Positions 3,868-32,449 of a stretch of 64,000 nucleotides of DNA are shown here, in pieces. How positions within the stretch are numbered: position 1 is the stretch's first letter; the number at the start of each line of letters is the position of its first letter. The notes under the pieces are model-generated. The model worked only from the letters and a program-made list of their open reading frames with translations. It was not told the DNA's origin and did no database searches. The DNA is from Chloroflexota bacterium (GTDB lineage Bacteria; Chloroflexota; Dehalococcoidia; JACPPT01), in assembly GCA_016190815.1 (NCBI GenBank), contig JACPPT010000063.1, forward strand, positions 2,370-66,369. Reading direction: 5' to 3'. Position numbers and translations under genes: made by a program.

Positions 3868-4203
3868 ATGAAATACGCACGGGAACTCCTCAAAGGCAAC
3901 ACCGACGCCCTCCTTCTTTCCCTCATCGCAGAAGAACCCAAATATGGCTACTCTCTATCTAAGGAAATTGAAGCGAGGAGCAACGGTTACTTTCGCTTCA
4001 AAGAGGGAACCCTCTATCCAGCCCTGCACCGCATGGAGAAGGCGGGGCTTGTGGCGGGAAAATGGCAAAGGTCTCCTAACGGACAACTGCGGAGGTATTA
4101 TCACATTACAGAAAAGGGCAAGCGCTTCTTGGAGAAGAAAACGATAGAGTGGAGGGATTTCTCCCTGGCTATAAATCTGGTTTTAAAGCCAGGTAGCACT
4201 TAG
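3868..4203 (+). CDS. PadR family transcriptional regulator
   Basis: LLLSLIAEEPKYGYSLSKEI...FKEGTLYPALHRMEKAGLV winged-helix signature. Confidence 0.9.
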   Translation: MKYARELLKGNTDALLLSLIAEEPKYGYSLSKEIEARSNGYFRFKEGTLYPALHRMEKAGLVAGKWQRSPNGQLRRYYHITEKGKRFLEKKTIEWRDFSLAINLVLKPGST

Positions 4204-4212
4204 GGAGGGATA

Positions 4213-5211
4213 ATGCTTCCCGAGTTACAACAGTATTTGAACAGTCTGAGGGCCAACCTCAGGCTTGATCCGCATTCCGAGCATCAAATCCTCTGCGAGA
4301 TCTATACACATCTGGAAGAAAGAATCCAGGAGCTTAGAGAAAGCGGACTTACCCAGGAGGAAGCAGTTAAGAAAGCTACTGAGAGATTCGGCCGCCCCAG
4401 GACCCTGGCGAGGGAGATCTACGAGGCACACATCGGGGGCTCCTGGCTTGATGCGTTTATGGCAGGAAGTCCTCACTTAGTCGTCGCCCTGCTGTTTGCC
4501 ACCCAGGCCTGGAGCAACCTCTGGTGGCTCAGCCTTAGCATTGTTTCCTTCATAATAGCAACCCTGCATGGATGGTGGCGTGGGAAGCCCGCGTGGTTTT
4601 ATCCCTGGCTAGGATACTCCCTGCTAATGCCCCTGGCCGCCTGTTTGTCGTCCCTCTTCCTCATAGCCCGGATGGTTAGCGGGGTGGTTTTTGGAGGCAC
4701 CCCCTCTCTTGGCCCCTGGGTATGGGTTGCCATTTTTGTGTATGTTCCATTTTCCCTGTGGCTTCTGAGCTACGCTGTGAAAAGAGTTGTTCGGCGAGAC
4801 TGGCTGTATGTCTCCCTCATGTCTCTACCACTGCCTGTTATTGTCACGTGGCTCATAACTCTGCAATCAAGTGGAAGGCTTTTCAGCCAGAACTCCTTCG
4901 GGGCCCATGAGGCAGACCTTGCAACAGCATCCATGTTTCTCTTCCTTGCCTTAGCCGTTGCCATCTTTATCAGGCTAACACAAAGGGCTCTGAGAATAGG
5001 GGTATTGCTTTTCGTTATTCCAATTCTGCTGATAATGCTTTCCCCAAGACTGGAGGGCGGCCCAGACTTCTGGGGGATTTCTGCACTTGCCCTCTTGTCT
5101 ATCGCACTCCTCCTAAGCCCCATCCTGCTGGAGCTTGCCATCGGGCGTGGCGACAATGATGCAAACTCCTGGAGCGAATCTTGGCTAGAGCAGGTCCCTC
5201 GCAGAGGTTAG
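4213..5211 (+). CDS. PadR-associated multi-pass membrane protein (N-terminal helical sensor/anti-regulator-like domain)
   Basis: Starts 10 nt after padR. N-terminus LNSLRANL...EERIQELRESGLTQEEAVKKATERFGRP resembles DUF1700/permease-prefix modules. At least 6 TM helices follow. Confidence 0.65.
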   Translation: MLPELQQYLNSLRANLRLDPHSEHQILCEIYTHLEERIQELRESGLTQEEAVKKATERFGRPRTLAREIYEAHIGGSWLDAFMAGSPHLVVALLFATQAWSNLWWLSLSIVSFIIATLHGWWRGKPAWFYPWLGYSLLMPLAACLSSLFLIARMVSGVVFGGTPSLGPWVWVAIFVYVPFSLWLLSYAVKRVVRRDWLYVSLMSLPLPVIVTWLITLQSSGRLFSQNSFGAHEADLATASMFLFLALAVAIFIRLTQRALRIGVLLFVIPILLIMLSPRLEGGPDFWGISALALLSIALLLSPILLELAIGRGDNDANSWSESWLEQVPRRG

Positions 5212-5324
5212 GGTCATAGAGTATCAGGTTGCGTAGCCTGATCATAGCAGTGTCAGCGATGGGTGGTTTTCTAGCAGGTCAAAAACGCTCGTAGCGAGTA
5301 TGAGACCCCGTGAGGGAAATCTAA

Positions 5325-6179
5325 ATGACTAAGATCGCTATCGTAACTGACAGTACAGCCTGCATACCGAAGGAACTTGTGGATGAGCTCGGAATCTGGG
5401 TGGTTCCGATAAACATTGAATACCAAGGAGTGATCTACAGAGACGGCATCGACCTTTTGCCCGGCGACTTCTACAAGCTCCTGGAAAAGGTTGAAAAGGC
5501 GCCTCATACCTCCCCCGCATCCCCCGGGGCTTATCTTGAGGTCTACAAAGAAGCAAGTAAGAATGCTGAGGCCATTCTCTGCATAACTCTTCTTTCCAGG
5601 CTCAGTGCCATGTATGATGCGGCAAGGCTCGCTACGGAAATGGCACAGGGTTTACTTCCCGATACAGAAATAAGAGTCCTGGACTCCAGGACAGCCACAA
5701 TGGCTCAAGGGTTTGTTGTCCTGGCAGCAGCTAGAGCAGCAGCCCAGGGAAAAAGTTTAGAAGAGGTTACACAAGCTGCGGAGGAGCTAAAACCAAAGGT
5801 GCAAGTTTTAGCCTTCCTCGACACTCTGAACTATCTTGCAAAAAGCGGACGAATCCCCAAGGCCGGAGCCTGGGCGGCTTCTCTCTTGCATATGAAGCCC
5901 GTCATCAGTTTAGCCAATGGAGAGATAAGCCTTGTGACAGCAGTGCGAAGTCGACAGAGTGGCATGAATCGTCTAATGGAGTTGATTGAGGAAAGAACAG
6001 AACGGAAAGGTCCCCTGCACATAGCAGTCATACACGCCGGCGCCCCACAAGAGGCTGAAAGACTTAAGGAAAGGATCAAGTCCCAGTTTCAGTGCTCTGA
6101 GCTATTAGTTACCGAGTTCACGCCGGTAATGGGGGTTTACACTGGACCTGGCCTCCTCGGTCTGGCCTTCTACTCGTAA
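5325..6179 (+). CDS. DegV family fatty-acid-binding protein
   Basis: IAIVTDSTACIP start, TSPASPG motif and LAKSGRIPK motif. Confidence 0.9.
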   Translation: MTKIAIVTDSTACIPKELVDELGIWVVPINIEYQGVIYRDGIDLLPGDFYKLLEKVEKAPHTSPASPGAYLEVYKEASKNAEAILCITLLSRLSAMYDAARLATEMAQGLLPDTEIRVLDSRTATMAQGFVVLAAARAAAQGKSLEEVTQAAEELKPKVQVLAFLDTLNYLAKSGRIPKAGAWAASLLHMKPVISLANGEISLVTAVRSRQSGMNRLMELIEERTERKGPLHIAVIHAGAPQEAERLKERIKSQFQCSELLVTEFTPVMGVYTGPGLLGLAFYS

Positions 6180-6230
6180 GGTCCGGCGGGATCAACACCA
6201 TAAGTCACTTGAAAGGGGAGGGAATTTGAA

Positions 6231-7088
6231 ATGGAGAAGGTAGCGGTAGTTGTGGACAGCACCGTTTGTCTGCCTAAAGATTTGGTAGAGCAATACCGCA
6301 TAGAGATTGTGCCCATAGGTTTAGTCATCGGCGGGACGGTATACCGAGATGGCCTGGATATGATGCCCTCCGAGTTCTATGAGATGCTGAAAACGGCGGT
6401 TAAGCTGCCCACCACCTCACCCTCCTCTCCTGGGGGATATTTTGAGGCCTACAAAAGGGCCAGCGAAAGGGCCAACGCCATCCTCTGTCTCGCAGTCTCC
6501 TCAAAGTTAAGCGCTATGATGGACTCGGCAAGAGCTGCCAAGAAGATGGCAGAGACCGAGCTCCCAGGCGTGACAATAGAGGTAATGGACTCCATGACGG
6601 CAGGCGGAGCAGAGGGTTTCATCGCCCTTGGTGCTGCCCGGGCTGCCCAAACAGGAAGCGGTCTGAAGGAAGTAATCAGCATCGCCGAAGAGTTGAGGGC
6701 CAAGACCAGCTTCATCGTGCTTATGGACACCCTTTATTACCTTGCAAAAGGCGGCCGCATACCGAAGGCTGCTGCTTGGGCTGGCTCGCTTTTAAACCTC
6801 AAGCCAATAATCGAACTCGCTCACGGAGAGGTCAAACTGGCCGACAGGCCCAGGACCAGGACCAAGGGGATAGAGCACCTCCTCACTATGATGCGGGAAA
6901 GGGTAGGCTCAAAGCCCGTGCACGTTGCTGTCTCTCATGCTGCATCCCTGGAGGAAGGCCAAAGGCTGATGGAAAGGGTAGCGAAGGAGTTCAATTGCGT
7001 GGAACTCTTCTTATCGGAGTTCACCCCTGTTATGGGCACCCACGCGGGGCCGGGTGTTCTTTCTCTGGTATTTTACACCGAGGACTAA
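6231..7088 (+). CDS. DegV family fatty-acid-binding protein (tandem paralog)
   Basis: VAVVVDSTVCLP, TSPSSPG and LAKGGRIPK motifs. Collinear with the upstream paralog. Confidence 0.9.
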   Translation: MEKVAVVVDSTVCLPKDLVEQYRIEIVPIGLVIGGTVYRDGLDMMPSEFYEMLKTAVKLPTTSPSSPGGYFEAYKRASERANAILCLAVSSKLSAMMDSARAAKKMAETELPGVTIEVMDSMTAGGAEGFIALGAARAAQTGSGLKEVISIAEELRAKTSFIVLMDTLYYLAKGGRIPKAAAWAGSLLNLKPIIELAHGEVKLADRPRTRTKGIEHLLTMMRERVGSKPVHVAVSHAASLEEGQRLMERVAKEFNCVELFLSEFTPVMGTHAGPGVLSLVFYTED

Positions 7089-25004: not shown

Positions 25005-26183
25005 CTAGTCCCTGCGGCCGAAGATGGCCACGGCAGAGGTGAACCAGCCGGGCGAGCCGCCCAGGTTGTGGGTAAGCCCCGTGCGCACGTTCTTCACCTG
25101 GCGTGGCCCAGCCTTGCCCTGTAGCTGCTTATACACCTCGTAGATCATCCGCAGCCCGCTTGCTCCAATGGGATGCCCAAAGCATTTCAGGCCGCCATCT
25201 GTGTTTACGGGGAGTCCGCCCTCCAGGGAGAAGAACCCGGACTCCACGTCCTCCGGCGCTCTCCCTTTGGGGCTCCACTGGAGGTCCTCGTAGATAATCA
25301 TCTCGGTGATGGTGAAGCAGTCGTGCACTACGGCAATATCTATCTCCTCGCGCGGGGTCTTTATCCCCGCCTCTTTATATGCCAACTCCCCTGCGGCCAC
25401 GTTCTCCTGGAAGTGCACGTAGTCGTAGGTGTTCTGAAGGACGGCCTGTTGAGCACCACAGGCGATCCCCAGTCCCTTCACCAAAATGTAGTCCTGTTTG
25501 AAGTTCTTTGCTATATCCGGGCGAGTGATTATGGCGGCAGCCGAACCGTCGCTGACGCCGCAGCAGTCAAAGAGGCCCAGAGGCCAGGCTATCATTGGAG
25601 CGTTTATTGCCTGCTCCTCCGTAATCTCCCTTCTGAAGTGAGCCTTAGGGTTGAGAGTGCCGTTGTGATGGTTCTTAACGGCTATCTTAGCAAGGATTCG
25701 TTTCCCCTGCTCGTAGCTCAGTCCATAGTGATGGAAATATCTTGTAGCAGCCATAGCAAACTGCATTGGCGGCGGGCTGGGCGGGGTAACCTCGCTGGTT
25801 ATGATCTCCAGATTGCCAGGAAGGCCGGTGAACCCGGTGTCCTTTAGCTTTTCCACTCCACAGGCGAGGACAACATCATATATGCCAGCCGCCACGGCGT
25901 AGCAAGCGTTTCTAAAAGCATCCGTTGCCGTGGCACAGGCGTTTTCCACCCTGGTTATGGGTATGTACTCCAGCTTAAGGGGGCGCGCCAACATCGTGCC
26001 CCTTCGACCAGACATGGTGGAGCCTACCCAGGCTGCCTGGATATCCTTGGGATCAACACCCGCATCCTCAAAGGCCTCCCAGCAGGCATCAATCATCAGG
26101 TCATCAGGGCTTTTATCCCACAGCTCACCGAATTTGGTGCAGCCCATCCCAACTATGGCTACTCTGTCCTTTATGCCCTCCAT
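25005..26183 (-). CDS. SCP-x/archaeal-type thiolase
   Basis: VAIVGMGCTKFGE N-terminus, nucleophile Cys in VENACATATDAF, and GHPIGASG. Start set at ATG 26183, after GGGAGGTG. Confidence 0.88.
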   Translation of the reverse strand: MEGIKDRVAIVGMGCTKFGELWDKSPDDLMIDACWEAFEDAGVDPKDIQAAWVGSTMSGRRGTMLARPLKLEYIPITRVENACATATDAFRNACYAVAAGIYDVVLACGVEKLKDTGFTGLPGNLEIITSEVTPPSPPPMQFAMAATRYFHHYGLSYEQGKRILAKIAVKNHHNGTLNPKAHFRREITEEQAINAPMIAWPLGLFDCCGVSDGSAAAIITRPDIAKNFKQDYILVKGLGIACGAQQAVLQNTYDYVHFQENVAAGELAYKEAGIKTPREEIDIAVVHDCFTITEMIIYEDLQWSPKGRAPEDVESGFFSLEGGLPVNTDGGLKCFGHPIGASGLRMIYEVYKQLQGKAGPRQVKNVRTGLTHNLGGSPGWFTSAVAIFGRRD

Positions 26184-26199
26184 GTCGTCACCTCCCTTC

Positions 26200-27600
26200 T
26201 TATACTCTAACTGGAATGGTCTTCCAGAAATAGTTGTGAATGCCTCCAACGCTGCTGAGCTCTCTGAAGCTCAGCTCCAAAGGCATTCCTACCTTTATCT
26301 CCTCTATTATGCGGTCGGTCATTTGAAGCATCGTCCTCCCGCCGCCCTCGAAGTCAACTATGGTTACCACCATGGGCACGTCCTTTGTGCCTGCAATGTA
26401 GTCCATGCTGTAGGTAAAGATAGTGGCCATCTTCTCCGATAACTGTACCTCTTCGTACTTATCCTTGGCGTGACAGAAGGTGCAAACCCTCTGAATAGGG
26501 TACTGGATGTTCTTGCAGTTCATGCACCTGCATCCATGAAATGAAAGAACCTCTCTCTGCTCCCTCCAGAGGGCAGTGGTCGAGGGTATCTTTACCGGGC
26601 GGACGGCGGATGGTACCTCTGGCAGAAGGTCGCGCCAGCGCAAATAGGTAGCATAGTCAACCATCCGCTTCGATTCCAGGTGTTTCTTTACGCCCCTCCT
26701 GTTTTTCACATCTTTTATACGTTCTGTAACCTGAAGATAGAAGGCGTCGCCTCCGTTACCATAGCCAGCCAGGAGGATTTTGTCACCGGGTTTTGCCTCC
26801 TCCAAGGCTGCAATCAGCAGCATCAGGGAATGGGCAGTCCACGTGCAACCTACTTTACCGAACAGAGGGTCCTGAACCTGCTTCTTTTCGTCAAAGCCCA
26901 GGCCCCTGACAAGCTCCGCATGCCTTCTGGAGTCGGGGGCATAGATAGCCACCCTGGAGAAGTCCTGCAAGGAAAGGTTGTGGTTTTTCATCAGTCCGGA
27001 GACAGCGTCTCTTGTGGCCTTAATATATCCCTCGCCCAAAGCAAAGCGGTCCTCTCCTGCTCGCAGGAAGCTATCTCCAGGCACCCTCCAAAAATCATTG
27101 ATTTCCGCTGTCACTGAGAAGCTGCCTTCAATGCTAGCTATTATGTCGGTATCCCCGATGAGCAAGGCAGCAGCCCCATCCCCACTGTTCATCTCGAAAT
27201 CCGAGCGGGGGGATGTAAGACGTTTGTCTGAAGCCACCACCAGGGCCTCCTTGGCTGAGCCGGCCTTGACAGCGTCGTAGGCCATCCTTATGGCAGTGGT
27301 TCCAGCCTTGGTGGAATCCGTGACGTCTGCTGTAAATATCTCCCTGGGCAGGTCAGCAGCGACGGCGACTATAGTGGCAGCTTGCTTCTCTACGTAAGGT
27401 GAAGTAGTTGTTGCAAAATACAGGCTGCCTACCTTGCTCCTGTCCCGATCCTTGAGACAGTCCATGGCCGCTGCCACAGCCATAGTAACGCTATCCTCAT
27501 CGAAGTTAGATACAGCCTTCTCCCCGCGAGCCCTGCCTATCTCACTCAGGTTTACCCTCCACAGGGGTATATATGCTCCATATGATGTGATGCCAATCAT
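26200..27600 (-). CDS. HMG-CoA synthase-like domain (catalytic residues substituted) fused to DUF35 Zn-ribbon/OB-fold domain
   Basis: N-terminal ~350 aa are collinear with HMGCS (MIGITSYGAYIP.., GYGNGGDAF). C-terminus has CRCMNC...CTFC plus an OB-fold (DUF35). See findings for the active-site substitutions. Confidence 0.8.
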   Translation of the reverse strand: MIGITSYGAYIPLWRVNLSEIGRARGEKAVSNFDEDSVTMAVAAAMDCLKDRDRSKVGSLYFATTTSPYVEKQAATIVAVAADLPREIFTADVTDSTKAGTTAIRMAYDAVKAGSAKEALVVASDKRLTSPRSDFEMNSGDGAAALLIGDTDIIASIEGSFSVTAEINDFWRVPGDSFLRAGEDRFALGEGYIKATRDAVSGLMKNHNLSLQDFSRVAIYAPDSRRHAELVRGLGFDEKKQVQDPLFGKVGCTWTAHSLMLLIAALEEAKPGDKILLAGYGNGGDAFYLQVTERIKDVKNRRGVKKHLESKRMVDYATYLRWRDLLPEVPSAVRPVKIPSTTALWREQREVLSFHGCRCMNCKNIQYPIQRVCTFCHAKDKYEEVQLSEKMATIFTYSMDYIAGTKDVPMVVTIVDFEGGGRTMLQMTDRIIEEIKVGMPLELSFRELSSVGGIHNYFWKTIPVRV

Positions 27601-27702
27601 GTCAAGCCTCCTCGACAGAGCTCATTCAAGCGGGTGTTCCCCCAACCCGCTGAATTATAGGCTACAGTGCCACAGGCGTCAATACAACTTTTGAATTATT
27701 AC

Positions 27703-28566
27703 TCACGAATCTGGATATACACGCCTTTCCAACTCTTGGATCAGGCGACTCGGCTCGTCGGCAGCCAAGTGAACATTGGTAACAGAGGAAGTAGGGCCAA
27801 GCCACCCCTGTAGAGCCTGGGGCTTTTTCAGATGGAGGGATACATTTGTCTTCCCGCCGACAGCTACGTATGCGGCATCTTCATCGGTCTTTACCTTAAG
27901 ACCATCACCACGCTGATGCGTTTTTCTGCTGTTCATCTCCACTCTCAAGATGTTGTTGTACGCGATTTCAGCCTGCGCAAGAATGCCGTATGAAATGCGA
28001 ATGCCATCCCGATCTAGGCGATAGGGCAGAGTCACCATCGAGGCGTAAAGGCCGCATACCCAGAAGAACAGATACATAGCGGAAATGAGAAGGAACCAGC
28101 GTAGCCAGGCCCAGGGCAGCAACAGCTCAATAAGCAGTAGCTCAACTGGTGTGGTGAACAGCAGGACTATCAGGAAAGGGCCCAAAATGGACTTGCGGTG
28201 ATAGGTAAAGTCGTTTTCACCTGGATGCGCTCGCCTTAGAAGCCACTTTCCCAGGCAATACCAGAGCTTTAGTTCCGAGGCCAGGGCCTTAGCCAGTTTT
28301 CCGGGCAGGAAAACCTCCATTCCATTTTCCATCGCTACCCACACATCAATGCTAGCCTTACGGTCACGCCTGTAACGATGGACGGCAACAGCGACCTGTC
28401 GAAAACCGACAATTAGTAAAAGGGCTTCTATTGCAACTACAACGCCTATGGCTGTTCTGATGTCCATGAAGCGAAGGCGAACGAGCACGACTTCTGCAAT
28501 TATAAGTGCCAGCAGAAGCCATCTCCAGATGCTTTTCGCCTTCTTGCTATTTGGACTAACTACCAT
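27703..28566 (-). CDS. hypothetical 4-TM membrane protein with soluble C-terminal domain
   Basis: No family recognised. Overlaps the hbd stop by 7 nt, so it is probably co-translated within the operon. Confidence 0.55.
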   Translation of the reverse strand: MVVSPNSKKAKSIWRWLLLALIIAEVVLVRLRFMDIRTAIGVVVAIEALLLIVGFRQVAVAVHRYRRDRKASIDVWVAMENGMEVFLPGKLAKALASELKLWYCLGKWLLRRAHPGENDFTYHRKSILGPFLIVLLFTTPVELLLIELLLPWAWLRWFLLISAMYLFFWVCGLYASMVTLPYRLDRDGIRISYGILAQAEIAYNNILRVEMNSRKTHQRGDGLKVKTDEDAAYVAVGGKTNVSLHLKKPQALQGWLGPTSSVTNVHLAADEPSRLIQELERRVYPDS

Positions 28567-29453
28567 TTGGACATGACGTCATTCCAGAAGGCGTAGATGC
28601 CCTTTCCGCCTCGCCCGGTATATCCTGCACGGACCATTATCCTTATAAGAGGATGCAGCTTGCCCTTCTCGGGGCCAAGCTCCCTCATGGCATCCTCCTC
28701 GGCAGAGGCGGCGATAGCCCAGCCGCCGATGGCGTCTGCCAGCTCCAGGGGGCCCACAGGAAGATTGTATCCCAGCTTCAGGGCCTTATCGATGTCCTCG
28801 GGGGTAGCTACCCTCTCCCAGACCATCTGAACAGCCTCGTATCTCATGCCCCGATAGGCCCTGTTGGCCAAGAAACCAAAGCTGTAATCCTTACACACCA
28901 CCGGCTCCTTCCCAAGCTTCTTCGAGAGAGCGTAAACCAGGTCCATTGTCTCCTGGGAGGTGAAAGTGCCCCTCACCACCTCCACCAGTCTCATCACCCC
29001 CACAGGGTTGAAGAAGTGCATTCCTGCCACCCTGTCCGGCCTCTGGGTTACCTTGGCCATTTCCGTTATGTTAAGTGCTGAGGTATTGGAGGCCAGCACA
29101 ACACCGGGAGGGGCGTTTTCATCAAGCTTCTTGAAAACGTCCCTTTTCACATCCAGGCTTTCGACGACCGCCTCTATCACATAGTCAGCCTTTTTCACAG
29201 TCTCGGGGATGCTGGCCGTCCCTACAATCCTGCCCATGATTTCACGGAGCTCGTCCTGGGTCATCCTGCCCTTTTCTACAAAGAACCTGTTCAACCTGGT
29301 TTCTATCGACTTGAGCCCCTCCTTGACAAGTTCGTCCTTCACGTCCCACATCACAACAGAGTACTTACCAATCCTGGAGAAGAGCTCCGCAATCTGAGAG
29401 CCCATGGTGCCTGCGCCGATCACACCTACGTTTTTAATTTTTTCCAGTTCCAC
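28560..29453 (-). CDS. hbd: 3-hydroxyacyl-CoA (3-hydroxybutyryl-CoA) dehydrogenase
   Basis: VGVIGAGTMGSQIA NAD-binding motif and SNTSAL motif. GTG start after GGAGGTG. Confidence 0.9.
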   Translation of the reverse strand: MELEKIKNVGVIGAGTMGSQIAELFSRIGKYSVVMWDVKDELVKEGLKSIETRLNRFFVEKGRMTQDELREIMGRIVGTASIPETVKKADYVIEAVVESLDVKRDVFKKLDENAPPGVVLASNTSALNITEMAKVTQRPDRVAGMHFFNPVGVMRLVEVVRGTFTSQETMDLVYALSKKLGKEPVVCKDYSFGFLANRAYRGMRYEAVQMVWERVATPEDIDKALKLGYNLPVGPLELADAIGGWAIAASAEEDAMRELGPEKGKLHPLIRIMVRAGYTGRGGKGIYAFWNDVMSKW

Positions 29454-29617: not shown

Positions 29618-29702
29618 TGTGTGGTATGTTATACTATTACAAACATCGAAAAAACCAGATTGTTCATAGCAAGTTTACTAAGTTTTCATGCGAGGTAAGG
29701 GA

Positions 29703-31211
29703 ATGCGGATACTACTAGTGGAGCCTCCCATAAGCTCCAAGATGGTGGGGTACACAAAGATGATACGCCCGGAGCCACTGGCTTTGGAGTTCGTTGCTGC
29801 ATCTGTCCTCCCTGAACACGAGGTAAAAATCCTGGATCTCAGAGTTGACTCTACACCGCTGGAGAGCGAGATCGCTTCCTTTCAGCCCAACCTGGTGGGC
29901 ACAACAGGCTACACTACAGATGTCCCCGAGATGCTCCACATCCTGAGAAATGTTAAAGAAAGCGACTCAGATATAGTAACGGTGGCAGGAGGGTTCCATG
30001 CCAGCCTCTGTCCACAGGATTTCAACTTCGATTTCGTAGACATCATCGTTCGAGGAGAAGGAGAGGTAACCTTTCGAGAGCTCGTGGATACCGTCGAGAA
30101 TAGGGGCGATATTGAAAAGATTGAGGGAATAATCTACCGAGAAAAAGGCAAACAAGTTTCAACGCCGCATCGAAAGGTTAGCAAGAATCTGGATGGCCTC
30201 CCTCTGCCGGCGCGTAATCTCACCGACCACTATAGAAACAAATACCACTTCCACTTCTGGGAGAACCCCTACGTCATGGAGACCGCCCGAGGATGTCCCT
30301 ATCGCTGCACCTTCTGCTCAGTGTGGGTCTTCCACGATATGAAGACTCGCTATCGCTCACCGGAGCGAGTCCTTGAGGACCTGAAGTCCGTGAACTCAAA
30401 TATGGTGAGTTTTGTCGACGACGAATTCTTCCAGAACCCCAGGCGGGCGGGGCACATCGCCGACCTTACAATGGCCGAAGGTATAAAGAAACAGTACTGG
30501 GCTCAGGTCAGGGCCGATGACATCGTGAGGTGGCCGGGCCTGGCTAAGAAGTGGCGAGACACAGGCATGACATCCATCTTTCTAGGGCTTGAGAAGATCA
30601 CCGATGAAGACCTTTCCAGCGTGAATAAAAGAACCTCGGTGGCCATCAACGACCAGGCGATAAAAATCCTTCAGGACGACCTGGGCATAGACATCTGGGG
30701 ATCGTTCATCGTTGACCCCAAATGGACGAGATCGGACTTTGATTCCCTTATTGATTACGTTCGCAGCAAGAAAATAGCGTTCCCCAGCTTCACAGTCCTC
30801 ACTCCGCTGCCAGGCACACACTTCTTCCAGGAGAAGATGCATGAGCTCACCACCCGCAACTACGAGATATTCGACCTCCTTCATGCTGTACTTCCCACCA
30901 ATATGCCGTTGGAAGAGTTCTACTCCAACATGGCACGTCTATACGCAAACACAGCGCTGAGTTGGAATGAACTCCTGCGTAGGGTGAGGTCGGGGAGAAT
31001 CCCCATCTCCGCTTTAGGCCGGATAAGAGAGCTTCTCAAAGACGTAACAAACCCTCAGGCCTACCTCAGGGACATACATGAAGCAAAAGAGCCCACAGTC
31101 TGGAGACAGTTCAAGGGCTTGGATCTATCCCGCAGGCTAAAACGCATCAAGATAAAGGGGCTTAAGGAGCATCTGAAATCGAAGAACAACATGGCATGGG
31201 GCGAAACTTAG
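29703..31211 (+). CDS. B12-binding-domain radical SAM protein
   Basis: N-terminal MRILLVEPP B12-like domain. Radical SAM motif ARGCPYRCTFCSV. GAGGT lies 6 nt before ATG 29703. Confidence 0.85.
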   Translation: MRILLVEPPISSKMVGYTKMIRPEPLALEFVAASVLPEHEVKILDLRVDSTPLESEIASFQPNLVGTTGYTTDVPEMLHILRNVKESDSDIVTVAGGFHASLCPQDFNFDFVDIIVRGEGEVTFRELVDTVENRGDIEKIEGIIYREKGKQVSTPHRKVSKNLDGLPLPARNLTDHYRNKYHFHFWENPYVMETARGCPYRCTFCSVWVFHDMKTRYRSPERVLEDLKSVNSNMVSFVDDEFFQNPRRAGHIADLTMAEGIKKQYWAQVRADDIVRWPGLAKKWRDTGMTSIFLGLEKITDEDLSSVNKRTSVAINDQAIKILQDDLGIDIWGSFIVDPKWTRSDFDSLIDYVRSKKIAFPSFTVLTPLPGTHFFQEKMHELTTRNYEIFDLLHAVLPTNMPLEEFYSNMARLYANTALSWNELLRRVRSGRIPISALGRIRELLKDVTNPQAYLRDIHEAKEPTVWRQFKGLDLSRRLKRIKIKGLKEHLKSKNNMAWGET

Positions 31212-32449
31212 ATAACCGAGTTGTCGTTACAGGAATTGGTATCATAAGCCCCCTGGGTCTGGATGTGGAATCCACGTGGAAAGCCCTCATATCGGGTCTA
31301 TCGGGTGTAAATCATATAACATTCTTCGACCCAGAGCCTTTTGAAACCCGCTTCGCCGCTGAAGTCAAAGGGTTTGACCCCCTGGCCTATTTGGACCGCA
31401 AGGACGCAAAGCGCATGGACCGTTGCATGCAGTTCGCTGTTGTTGCCAGCAAGAAAGCTGTAGAAGGCGCTAACCTAAGAATAGACGAAACCAACTCAGA
31501 AGACATAGGTGTTATCATAGGGAGCGGCATAGGGGGAATAACCACCCTTTCCCAGCAGTTCCAGGTCCTGGCCGAAAAGGGGCCTTCCAGAGTCAGTCCA
31601 TTTCTTATTCCCATGATGATCAGCGACATGTCCTCAGGGCAGGTCTCCATATCTTTGGGAGCTAAGGGCCCCAACTTTTGCACAACCTCCTCCTGCTCCA
31701 GCGGCGCAGACGCCATTGGCGTAGCTTTCAACATGATAGCTCATGGAGATATACAAGCCGTCATAGCGGGGGGCAGCGAAGCACCCATAACGCCTATAGC
31801 CCTGGCGGGCTTCAGCGCCGCAGGCGCCCTTTCCAAACGAAACGATGCCCCCCAAAAGGCATCTCGCCCCTTTGATGCACAGCGAGACGGCTTTGTAATA
31901 GGTGAAGGGGCAACCGTTCTCGTCCTGGAAAGTCTGCCCTTCGCTATGAAACGGAATGCCCCCATCCTTGCAGAGCTTGTGAGCTATGGCGCCACCGGCG
32001 ATGCTTACCATATCACACAGCCCGCCTCAAACGGCGAAGGCGGTGCCAGGGCTATGCGCATTGCCCTAAAAAGGGCTGGGCTGGAGCCTAAGGACATAGA
32101 CTATATAAACGCCCACGGCACATCCACCCCCTTGAACGATAAATTTGAGACCATGGCAATAAAGGCTGTTTTTGGTGAAGAGGCCTACCGCGTGCCTGTA
32201 AGCTCCACCAAGTCAATGACCGGGCACCTGCTGGGCGCATCGGGTGCCCTGGAGGCAGCCATATGCAGCCTGGCCATTCAGCGGGGAGCCGTGCCCCCAA
32301 CGATAAACCTGGAATATCCTGACCCCGACTGCGACCTTGACTATGTGCCACATCTGGCTCGCAGGGGCCAGGTGAGAACAGCCCTTTCCAACTCCTTTGG
32401 GTTTGGTGGACACAACTCCTGTCTCATCTTCAAAAAATACGAGGGATAG
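31196..32449 (+). CDS. fabF: beta-ketoacyl-ACP synthase II
   Basis: RVVVTGIGIISPLG start. Cys-His-His triad contexts SSCSSGADAIG, NAHGTSTPLND and TGHLLGASG. Overlaps the radical SAM gene by 16 nt. Confidence 0.92.
   Translation: MGRNLDNRVVVTGIGIISPLGLDVESTWKALISGLSGVNHITFFDPEPFETRFAAEVKGFDPLAYLDRKDAKRMDRCMQFAVVASKKAVEGANLRIDETNSEDIGVIIGSGIGGITTLSQQFQVLAEKGPSRVSPFLIPMMISDMSSGQVSISLGAKGPNFCTTSSCSSGADAIGVAFNMIAHGDIQAVIAGGSEAPITPIALAGFSAAGALSKRNDAPQKASRPFDAQRDGFVIGEGATVLVLESLPFAMKRNAPILAELVSYGATGDAYHITQPASNGEGGARAMRIALKRAGLEPKDIDYINAHGTSTPLNDKFETMAIKAVFGEEAYRVPVSSTKSMTGHLLGASGALEAAICSLAIQRGAVPPTINLEYPDPDCDLDYVPHLARRGQVRTALSNSFGFGGHNSCLIFKKYEG

Follow-up and report, generated by a model that had tools for sequence, protein, structure and literature searches.

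In the archaeal complex of PDB entry 6ESQ, an acetoacetyl-CoA thiolase and an active 3-hydroxy-3-methylglutaryl-CoA (HMG-CoA) synthase (HMGS; catalytic residues E82, C114, H238 and N270) are joined by a separate DUF35 protein of 130 residues, and the assembly feeds the mevalonate pathway. The PhlACB (P. protegens, PDB codes 5M3K/5MG5) and MucABC (S. macacae, 9VBO/9VBT) complexes likewise contain a thiolase-like subunit, DUF35 and an HMGS-like subunit on three separate polypeptides, with a non-catalytic HMGS-like subunit and with the thiolase HDxF His lost, and are encoded in polyketide synthase (PKS) or nonribosomal peptide synthetase (NRPS) clusters. Liao et al. (Nat Commun 2026, PMC12960953) solved the MucABC structure, set it against PhlACB and the complex from archaea, and mined 1,030 bacterial HMGS/thiolase (ACAT)/DUF35 loci, of which 1,001 are without secondary-metabolism neighbours and make up an 'uncharacterised' class. 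Their P. fluorescens representative is a fused HMGS-DUF35 protein without the E-C-H-N tetrad, next to a thiolase that keeps the Cys, HDxF and GHx motifs; the complex formed no HMG-CoA and no acetoacetyl-CoA; it did cleave acetoacetyl-CoA, an activity nearly abolished by mutation of the HDxF His (PMC12960953). Here we describe a related locus in a 64,000-nucleotide stretch of contig JACPPT010000063.1 from a Chloroflexota bacterium of the class Dehalococcoidia (the window), where a gene for a 466-residue HMGS-like/DUF35 fusion (26200..27600, minus strand) is followed by a gene for a partner thiolase.

Judged by sequence, the window locus belongs to the class of Liao et al. in every respect. It shares with the P. 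fluorescens system the fusion, a lost tetrad (here T/T/Y/C) and a motif-intact adjacent thiolase, with no PKS or NRPS genes found; it differs in coming from another phylum and in having an hbd gene upstream. Compared with the archaeal 6ESQ complex, the three modules are homologous, the fold is the same and the thiolase carries the same Cys/HDxF/GHx set, but the HMGS half is catalytically dead at the residue level and fused to DUF35, and HMG-CoA reductase was not found in the lineage. In the benzoylsuccinyl-CoA thiolase BbsAB of G. metallireducens (7PXP), as in other DUF35/SCP2-thiolase pairs, a thiolase of the HDxF SCP2 type needs a DUF35 partner for beta-oxidation-like catabolism, but BbsA is a stand-alone DUF35 protein lacking an HMGS-like domain. 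The steroid aldolase-hydratases of the Ltp2/ChsH2 or Sal/Shy type contain a DUF35-MaoC fusion, whereas the window protein is an HMGS-fold fusion (a Pfam scan found no MaoC domain) and its partner has the full thiolase motifs. The idea of a pseudo-enzyme scaffold is already published (Liao et al. 2026), and within a very large family the window copy is an unremarkable, wrongly annotated case, which adds a divergent member of Chloroflexota type.

The fusion protein and its former catalytic positions

The fusion gene was delimited from its open reading frame (ORF), NCBIfam and Pfam matches, PDB matches, an AlphaFold2 model and Foldseek. Residues 1-325 (26626..27600, minus strand) form an HMGS-like domain of thiolase fold, which is matched by NF003274 ('hydroxymethylglutaryl-CoA synthase') with 262.4 bits, above the cut-off of 244. 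The archaeal equivalog model TIGR00748, which is stricter, scores 198.6 bits, far under its cut-off of 353, and Pfam recovers weak FabH-type pieces only. The best sequence matches in the PDB are PhlA (5M3K, E=3.5e-42), a Phl-type protein (9SKH, 3.4e-41) and the HMGS of M. thermolithotrophicus (6ESQ_I, 3.9e-41). An AlphaFold2 model built with 20 homologues as input has a pLDDT of 83.3 and a pTM of 0.87, confidence being low in a loop at about residues 165-185 and in the inter-domain linker at about 325-345. Searched with Foldseek, this model returns 6ESQ_I first (target-normalised template modelling score 0.88, 30% identity), followed by PhlA and MucA.

The C-terminal module (residues 344-464; 26209..26571, minus strand) combines a rubredoxin-like zinc ribbon with an OB fold. 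Its OB part is recognised by PF01796 (OB_ChsH2_C; residues 385-446, 33.2 bits, cut-off 27.1) and its ribbon, below the cut-off of 23.2, by PF12172 (zf-ChsH2; residues 356-380, 16.2 bits); the BbsA model NF053627 also matches this part. The whole module aligns with the DUF35 chain of the archaeal complex (6ESQ_E, E=2.4e-16). The ribbon cysteines C359, C362, C373 and C376 (nt 26473-26526) are invariant across 20 homologues. We note that some proteobacterial fusions on Novosphingobium, Variovorax and Azoarcus plasmids (L085, L087 and L090) lack the CxxC...CxxC cysteines but are otherwise built alike.

The phmmer alignment to 6ESQ_I (E=3.9e-41) is free of gaps near the catalytic sites and places T65 at E82, T97 at C114, Y220 at H238 and C252 at N270. 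The aligned motifs are GSESHPY and ATTTSPY, FACKAGT and DSTKAGT, and FHQPN and IYAPD, in 6ESQ_I and the fusion, respectively. The corresponding codons were checked in the DNA (minus strand: T65, 27406-27408; T97, 27310-27312; Y220, 26941-26943; C252, 26845-26847). A sequence-only reading of this DNA had proposed an HMGS-like N-terminal part, a fused DUF35 module with a four-Cys ribbon and OB fold, and replacement of the catalytic Glu by Thr65, Cys by Thr97 and His by Tyr. Domains and residues all bear this out, the by-eye assignments being those of the phmmer alignment.

The same loss was seen in every set of fused homologues surveyed. Among approximately 450 examined, none has Glu at the E82 column or Cys at the C114 column, and no fused protein with an intact catalytic site was found in these sets. 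In the best 120 database homologues (53-69% identity, all 465-487 residues), the E82 column is Thr in 118, the C114 column Leu in 116, the H238 column Tyr in 106 and the N270 column Asn in 97 and Cys in 9; Thr at the C114 column occurs in the window protein only. The 83 copies from species-representative genomes have neither the Glu nor the Cys, T-L-Y-N being their commonest pattern over the E/C/H/N columns (31/83). At the level of 50%-identity clusters, 128 full-length representatives again have no Glu and no Cys, and only one of them has His at the H238 column; Asn is found at the N270 column in 44 and the rest are mixed. Glu and Cys are also missing from seven plasmid copies (Novosphingobium, Rhodococcus, Variovorax, Streptomyces, Azoarcus, Natrialba and Haladaptatus). 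The 120 proteobacterial relatives show a pattern of their own, with Thr in 119, Gln in 113, Pro in 109 and Glu or Asp in 106 at the E82, C114, H238 and N270 columns. The proteobacterial fusions sampled are approximately 30-33% identical to the window protein and carry T/Q/P/E-D rather than T/L/Y/N. Catalytic loss is a property of the whole fused family, mostly as T/L/Y/N near the window and as T/Q/P/E-D in Proteobacteria. T/T/Y itself is a local variant and not the common pattern.

C252 was considered as a substitute nucleophile and rejected. In the nearest clade (62-69% identity) its column is Cys, Ser or Ala and the C114 column is Thr, Pro, Ile, Leu or Met, and this relaxation of both columns even among the closest relatives disfavours such a role.

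We placed the HMGS-like domain in a FastTree phylogeny (LG+gamma, 325 columns, 67 sequences, of which three are unfused references and two of these were aligned only as fragments; 6ESQ was chosen as the root). The 64 fused sequences all group in a single clade with a support of 0.905, a result that is indicative only given the thin set of references, and the proteobacterial fusions from Variovorax and Azoarcus fall inside it together with the window protein. PhlA and an unfused Muc-like protein from Priestia form a separate clade (support 0.997). Since all sampled fused proteins form one clade without the catalytic residues, fusion and inactivation would seem to be old and linked, which suggests that the fused form is not an 'evolutionary intermediate' toward antibiotic biosynthesis. 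The Priestia protein comes from a plasmid of P. megaterium (CP109765.1; L091, positions 3992-6770 of the locus), where an unfused HMGS-like/thiolase/zinc-ribbon trio with S/G/Q/D at the four columns immediately precedes genes for NRPS condensation domains; the arrangement resembles an acyltransferase cluster of Muc type (reutericyclin-like), here in a relative of Bacillus.

The family is large: clustered at 50% identity, its members fall into 3,235 groups at E<=1e-3 and into 625 at E<=1e-30. Within the class, the fusion is present in 8 of 21 genomes, with up to 6 paralogues per genome. The genome of the window holds two copies, of which the window copy is the more divergent. The second (L082; contig C71, 26080-27474) is 54% identical, has T/L/Y/N at the catalytic columns and is accompanied by its own thiolase. 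It lies beside genes for an S41 peptidase and SmpB, an arrangement common to several metagenome-assembled genomes (MAGs) of Dehalococcoidia, SAR202 and other Chloroflexota that likewise suggests where the genome belongs taxonomically, and is followed by genes for a major facilitator superfamily transporter and a family-III CoA-transferase. As read from residues and tree, our survey thus adds to the published class that the fused form is universally inactive, is monophyletic in the sample, occurs in multiple copies and is shared by haloarchaea and bacteria.

The partner thiolase and the settings of the pair

The gene directly downstream of the fusion encodes an SCP2/archaeal-type thiolase of 392 residues (25005..26183, minus strand), which was identified from NF004810 (571 bits, cut-off 403), its match to 6ESQ_A and its motifs. 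The two genes are 16 nt apart. The thiolase starts at the ATG at 26183, with a GGGAGG ribosome-binding site (26191..26196, minus strand) read in the sequence 7 nt before this ATG and 3 nt past the fusion stop, and the pair is tightly coupled through this element. The ORF finder had proposed a longer frame from a TTG at 26249; this is an artefact, as it is the ATG at 26183 that has the ribosome-binding site.

The best PDB match of the thiolase is the archaeal acetoacetyl-CoA thiolase 6ESQ_A (2.5e-59), ahead of BbsB (1.5e-43), while PhlC and MucB are weaker. It retains the nucleophile Cys83 in an NAC motif, HDCF at 287-290 and GHP at 336-338, so that the sequence-only view of an intact neighbouring thiolase stands. 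The Cys, HDCF and GHP motifs are all present in 72 of the 75 partner thiolases of related loci. The other three thiolase-cluster proteins near fusions have none of them (SEEY or YEPS is found at the HDxF site, for example) and are perhaps not thiolases but paralogues of another kind, for instance aldolase-like or inactive ones. Where enough downstream sequence was available, the thiolase begins no more than 300 nt past the end of the fusion on the same strand in 63 of 68 loci, so that what is conserved is the pair of genes. The HMGS part, the DUF35 part and the thiolase each have a 6ESQ subunit as top or near-top match among solved structures (6ESQ_I, 6ESQ_E and 6ESQ_A, respectively); all three parts thus map to the subunits of one solved complex.

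Across approximately 80 related loci, the commonest neighbours of the pair are acyl-CoA dehydrogenase (19), enoyl-CoA hydratase (crotonase; 11), 3-hydroxyacyl-CoA dehydrogenase (Hbd; 7), short-chain dehydrogenase/reductase (SDR; 7) and family-III CoA-transferase (5). The same pair also lies inside beta-oxidation clusters on catabolic plasmids from Novosphingobium, Rhodococcus, Variovorax, Streptomyces, Azoarcus and haloarchaea. Upstream of the pair in the two closest relatives (69% and 65% identity) lie genes for a family-I CoA-transferase, a metallo-beta-lactamase (MBL)-fold protein and a two-component system, and in one of them a branched-chain-type ABC transporter is encoded downstream. A cassette of genes for a GAF-histidine kinase, a response regulator, a family-I CoA-transferase, an MBL-fold protein, a DUF4286-like protein, the fusion and the thiolase is conserved in three loci from the nearest relatives of the window protein (L093, L094 and L095), and the context in the window differs from it. 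This cassette may be a regulated operon for 3-oxoacid utilisation.

Longer architectures exist as well: P0313 (911 residues) continues from pseudo-HMGS-DUF35 into SDR and SCP2 domains, and P0324 (722 residues) into two SCP2 domains. Their resemblance to peroxisomal MFE-2 and SCPx is a further link of the family to beta-oxidation.

In the window, the hbd gene (28560..29453, minus strand) encodes a 3-hydroxyacyl/3-hydroxybutyryl-CoA dehydrogenase with PF02737 (212 bits) and PF00725 (62 bits) domains, NF004474 matching below its cut-off (282 bits). Between hbd and the fusion lies a gene for a predicted multi-pass membrane protein of 287 residues (27703..28566, minus strand), whose gene shares 7 nt with the end of hbd; neither Pfam nor NCBIfam recognises this protein, and tblastn found no counterpart of it in 80 related loci. 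A sigma-70-like promoter match, TTGACG-17-TATAAT (11/12; 27654..27682, minus strand), lies in the 102 nt ahead of the fusion gene, found by a consensus scan alone and as such not evidence of function. A conserved four-gene operon of hbd, membrane protein, fusion and thiolase was considered and rejected, with the membrane protein in 0 of 80 loci, hbd in 7 of approximately 80 and the promoter-like match situated between the membrane protein gene and the fusion gene.

Proposed role and competing readings

We consider it probable that fusion and thiolase form a complex encoded by two genes, in which the fusion is non-catalytic and the thiolase alone catalyses the cleavage of short 3-oxoacyl-CoA substrates. 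The N-terminal domain keeps the HMGS fold without its Glu/Cys/His(/Asn) set and, because that set is lost, would form no acetyl-enzyme and could not condense acetyl-CoA with acetoacetyl-CoA. The C-terminal DUF35 module would play the adaptor part that it has in the archaeal, Phl and Muc structures, holding an HMGS-type dimer and an SCP2/archaeal-type thiolase dimer together. The fusion and the thiolase co-translated downstream of it most likely assemble into a hetero-oligomer, where the dead HMGS half would stabilise the thiolase and contribute to a shared CoA-binding chamber. Such a complex most likely performs the last step of a beta-oxidation-type route, the cleavage of acetoacetyl-CoA or a close analogue, with the substrate in the window perhaps supplied by the upstream 3-hydroxyacyl-CoA dehydrogenase. 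The neighbour contexts and the extra SDR and SCP2 domains point to thiolytic 3-oxoacyl-CoA cleavage in the family, and the substrates of the window subclade are probably short, for example acetoacetyl-CoA. The sequence-only reading had arrived at a pseudo-enzyme scaffold for a thiolase of unknown substrate. The scaffold gains support from the family-wide loss at the catalytic columns, the conserved pairing and the published P. fluorescens precedent; the thiolase partner is retained, and the substrate can be narrowed to short 3-oxoacyl-CoA on the basis of hbd upstream here and of the family-I, 3-oxoacid-type CoA-transferases upstream in the closest relatives. The family would then represent a widespread, barely studied degradative thiolase format, nearly always paired with a thiolase in beta-oxidation-type clusters and having one published biochemical example.

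Several points weigh against this assignment. The substitutes T65, L/T97 and Y220 are themselves conserved, and a pocket that keeps them may retain ligand binding or another role beyond that of a 'scaffold'. The direction of the reaction is not readable from sequence, and both complex and role are proposed from comparisons of this kind. Kinship with the assayed P. fluorescens protein is likewise drawn from shared architecture and motifs; no Pseudomonas names appear among the 120 matches listed for a search seeded with the Variovorax fusion, in which Achromobacter, Phreatobacter and Xanthobacteraceae were seen. In Sulfolobus, moreover, a ketothiolase (KT)/DUF35 hub drives condensation (bioRxiv 10.1101/2024.07.05.601840). 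Finally, hbd lies beside the pair in so few loci, and the promoter-like site separates the two in the window, which makes the link to 3-hydroxybutyryl-CoA weak.

By name, the fusion would be a genuine HMGS with non-canonical catalytic residues such as C252, the Cys at the Asn270 position of the window copy. NF003274 exceeds its curated cut-off (262 vs 244), and many database homologues carry the name 'hydroxymethylglutaryl-CoA synthase'. However, Glu, Cys and His are all replaced, and replacement of the tetrad in the archaeal complex abolishes HMG-CoA formation (Liao et al., PMC12960953); the C252 column is Ser or Ala in the closest clade, and several genomes hold multiple paralogues. The genomes examined point the same way. 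The window comes from a MAG of 1.33 Mb and 71% completeness, and its relatives in the genome set are related at class level only. HMG-CoA reductase (PF00368) was found neither in this 71%-complete genome nor in any of the 21 class genomes, while IspH, of the methylerythritol phosphate (MEP) pathway, is present in 19 of the 21 and in 14 of 14 of high quality. IspH was not found in the 71%-complete MAG of the window itself, so it is the relatives from the class that carry the MEP argument. Matches to mevalonate kinase (TIGR00549) in the same MAG are sub-threshold GHMP-kinase hits (82 bits vs 163) and were discarded as evidence for the pathway. With no HMG-CoA reductase in 21 genomes and IspH in 19, the fusion is not a mevalonate enzyme, in agreement with the sequence-only reading, though NCBIfam would name it one; true HMGS activity is extremely improbable. 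The misnaming can create phantom mevalonate pathways in reconstructions for Chloroflexota, Thermodesulfobacteriota, Actinomycetota, Proteobacteria and haloarchaea.

The readings that keep the fusion non-catalytic differ in what the thiolase does. It could work in the biosynthetic direction, condensing acetyl-CoA with an acyl-CoA to a 3-oxoacyl-CoA while the dead HMGS-DUF35 protein recruits the next enzyme, for example Hbd, to pull the unfavourable Claisen step. This would be a bacterial counterpart of the Sulfolobus KT/DUF35 fatty-acid-synthase assembly, which is independent of acyl carrier protein (ACP), or part of a butyrate or polyhydroxybutyrate route. The S. acidocaldarius hub indeed drives condensation, with a reductase and a dehydratase bound to it, the ancestral archaeal complex (6ESQ) is biosynthetic, and hbd lies upstream on the same strand in the window. 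We nevertheless regard this direction as unlikely, as the P. fluorescens fused complex made no acetoacetyl-CoA from acetyl-CoA and showed thiolysis only (PMC12960953), genes for acyl-CoA dehydrogenases, CoA-transferases and crotonases are enriched around the pair, in catabolic clusters and on catabolic plasmids, and the window Hbd, seldom adjacent elsewhere, belongs to the NAD-type 3HCDH family used in degradation. A more elaborate version, in which the fusion is a docking hub for Hbd, the thiolase condenses in an ACP-independent bacterial chain elongation and the T/L/Y/N pocket binds acyl or pantetheine groups and sets the specificity of each paralogue, is a speculative proposal to which we give little weight. 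PhlA is the best PDB sequence match (3.5e-42), and PhlA and MucA are likewise dead HMGS homologues in thiolase/DUF35 complexes, which would favour a Friedel-Crafts C-acyltransferase of PhlACB/MucABC type, CoA-independent or -dependent, with a small aromatic compound or a tetramic acid as acceptor. Yet the partner thiolase keeps the HDxF His lost in PhlC and MucB, DUF35 is a separate protein in both systems, no PKS or NRPS genes were found nearby, and the fused clade is separate from PhlA and the Muc-like Priestia protein (supports 0.905 and 0.997), making this very unlikely. Since DUF35 tethers thiolase-like aldolases in steroid side-chain degradation and some relatives reside on plasmids of steroid or oestrogen degraders (e.g. 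Novosphingobium ES2-1), retro-aldol cleavage of a branched or steroid-like side chain by an enzyme of Ltp2/ChsH2-DUF35 or Sal/Shy type can also be envisaged. There, however, DUF35 is fused to a MaoC hydratase rather than to an HMGS fold, and the window partner has the full thiolase motif set with an acetoacetyl-CoA thiolase as best match, so the chance of a retro-aldolase is very slight.

Other genes in the window

The ORFs between 12000 and 34000, among which no PKS or NRPS genes were found, include hbd, the membrane protein gene and genes for an SBF/ACR3-like transporter, a radical SAM enzyme, FabF, RecJ and similar proteins. A crotonase gene is located 6 kb from the pair. In a pair divergent from the hbd operon (29688-32449, plus strand), an orphan gene for a fabF-type ketosynthase starts before the preceding gene, for a B12-binding radical SAM enzyme, has ended.

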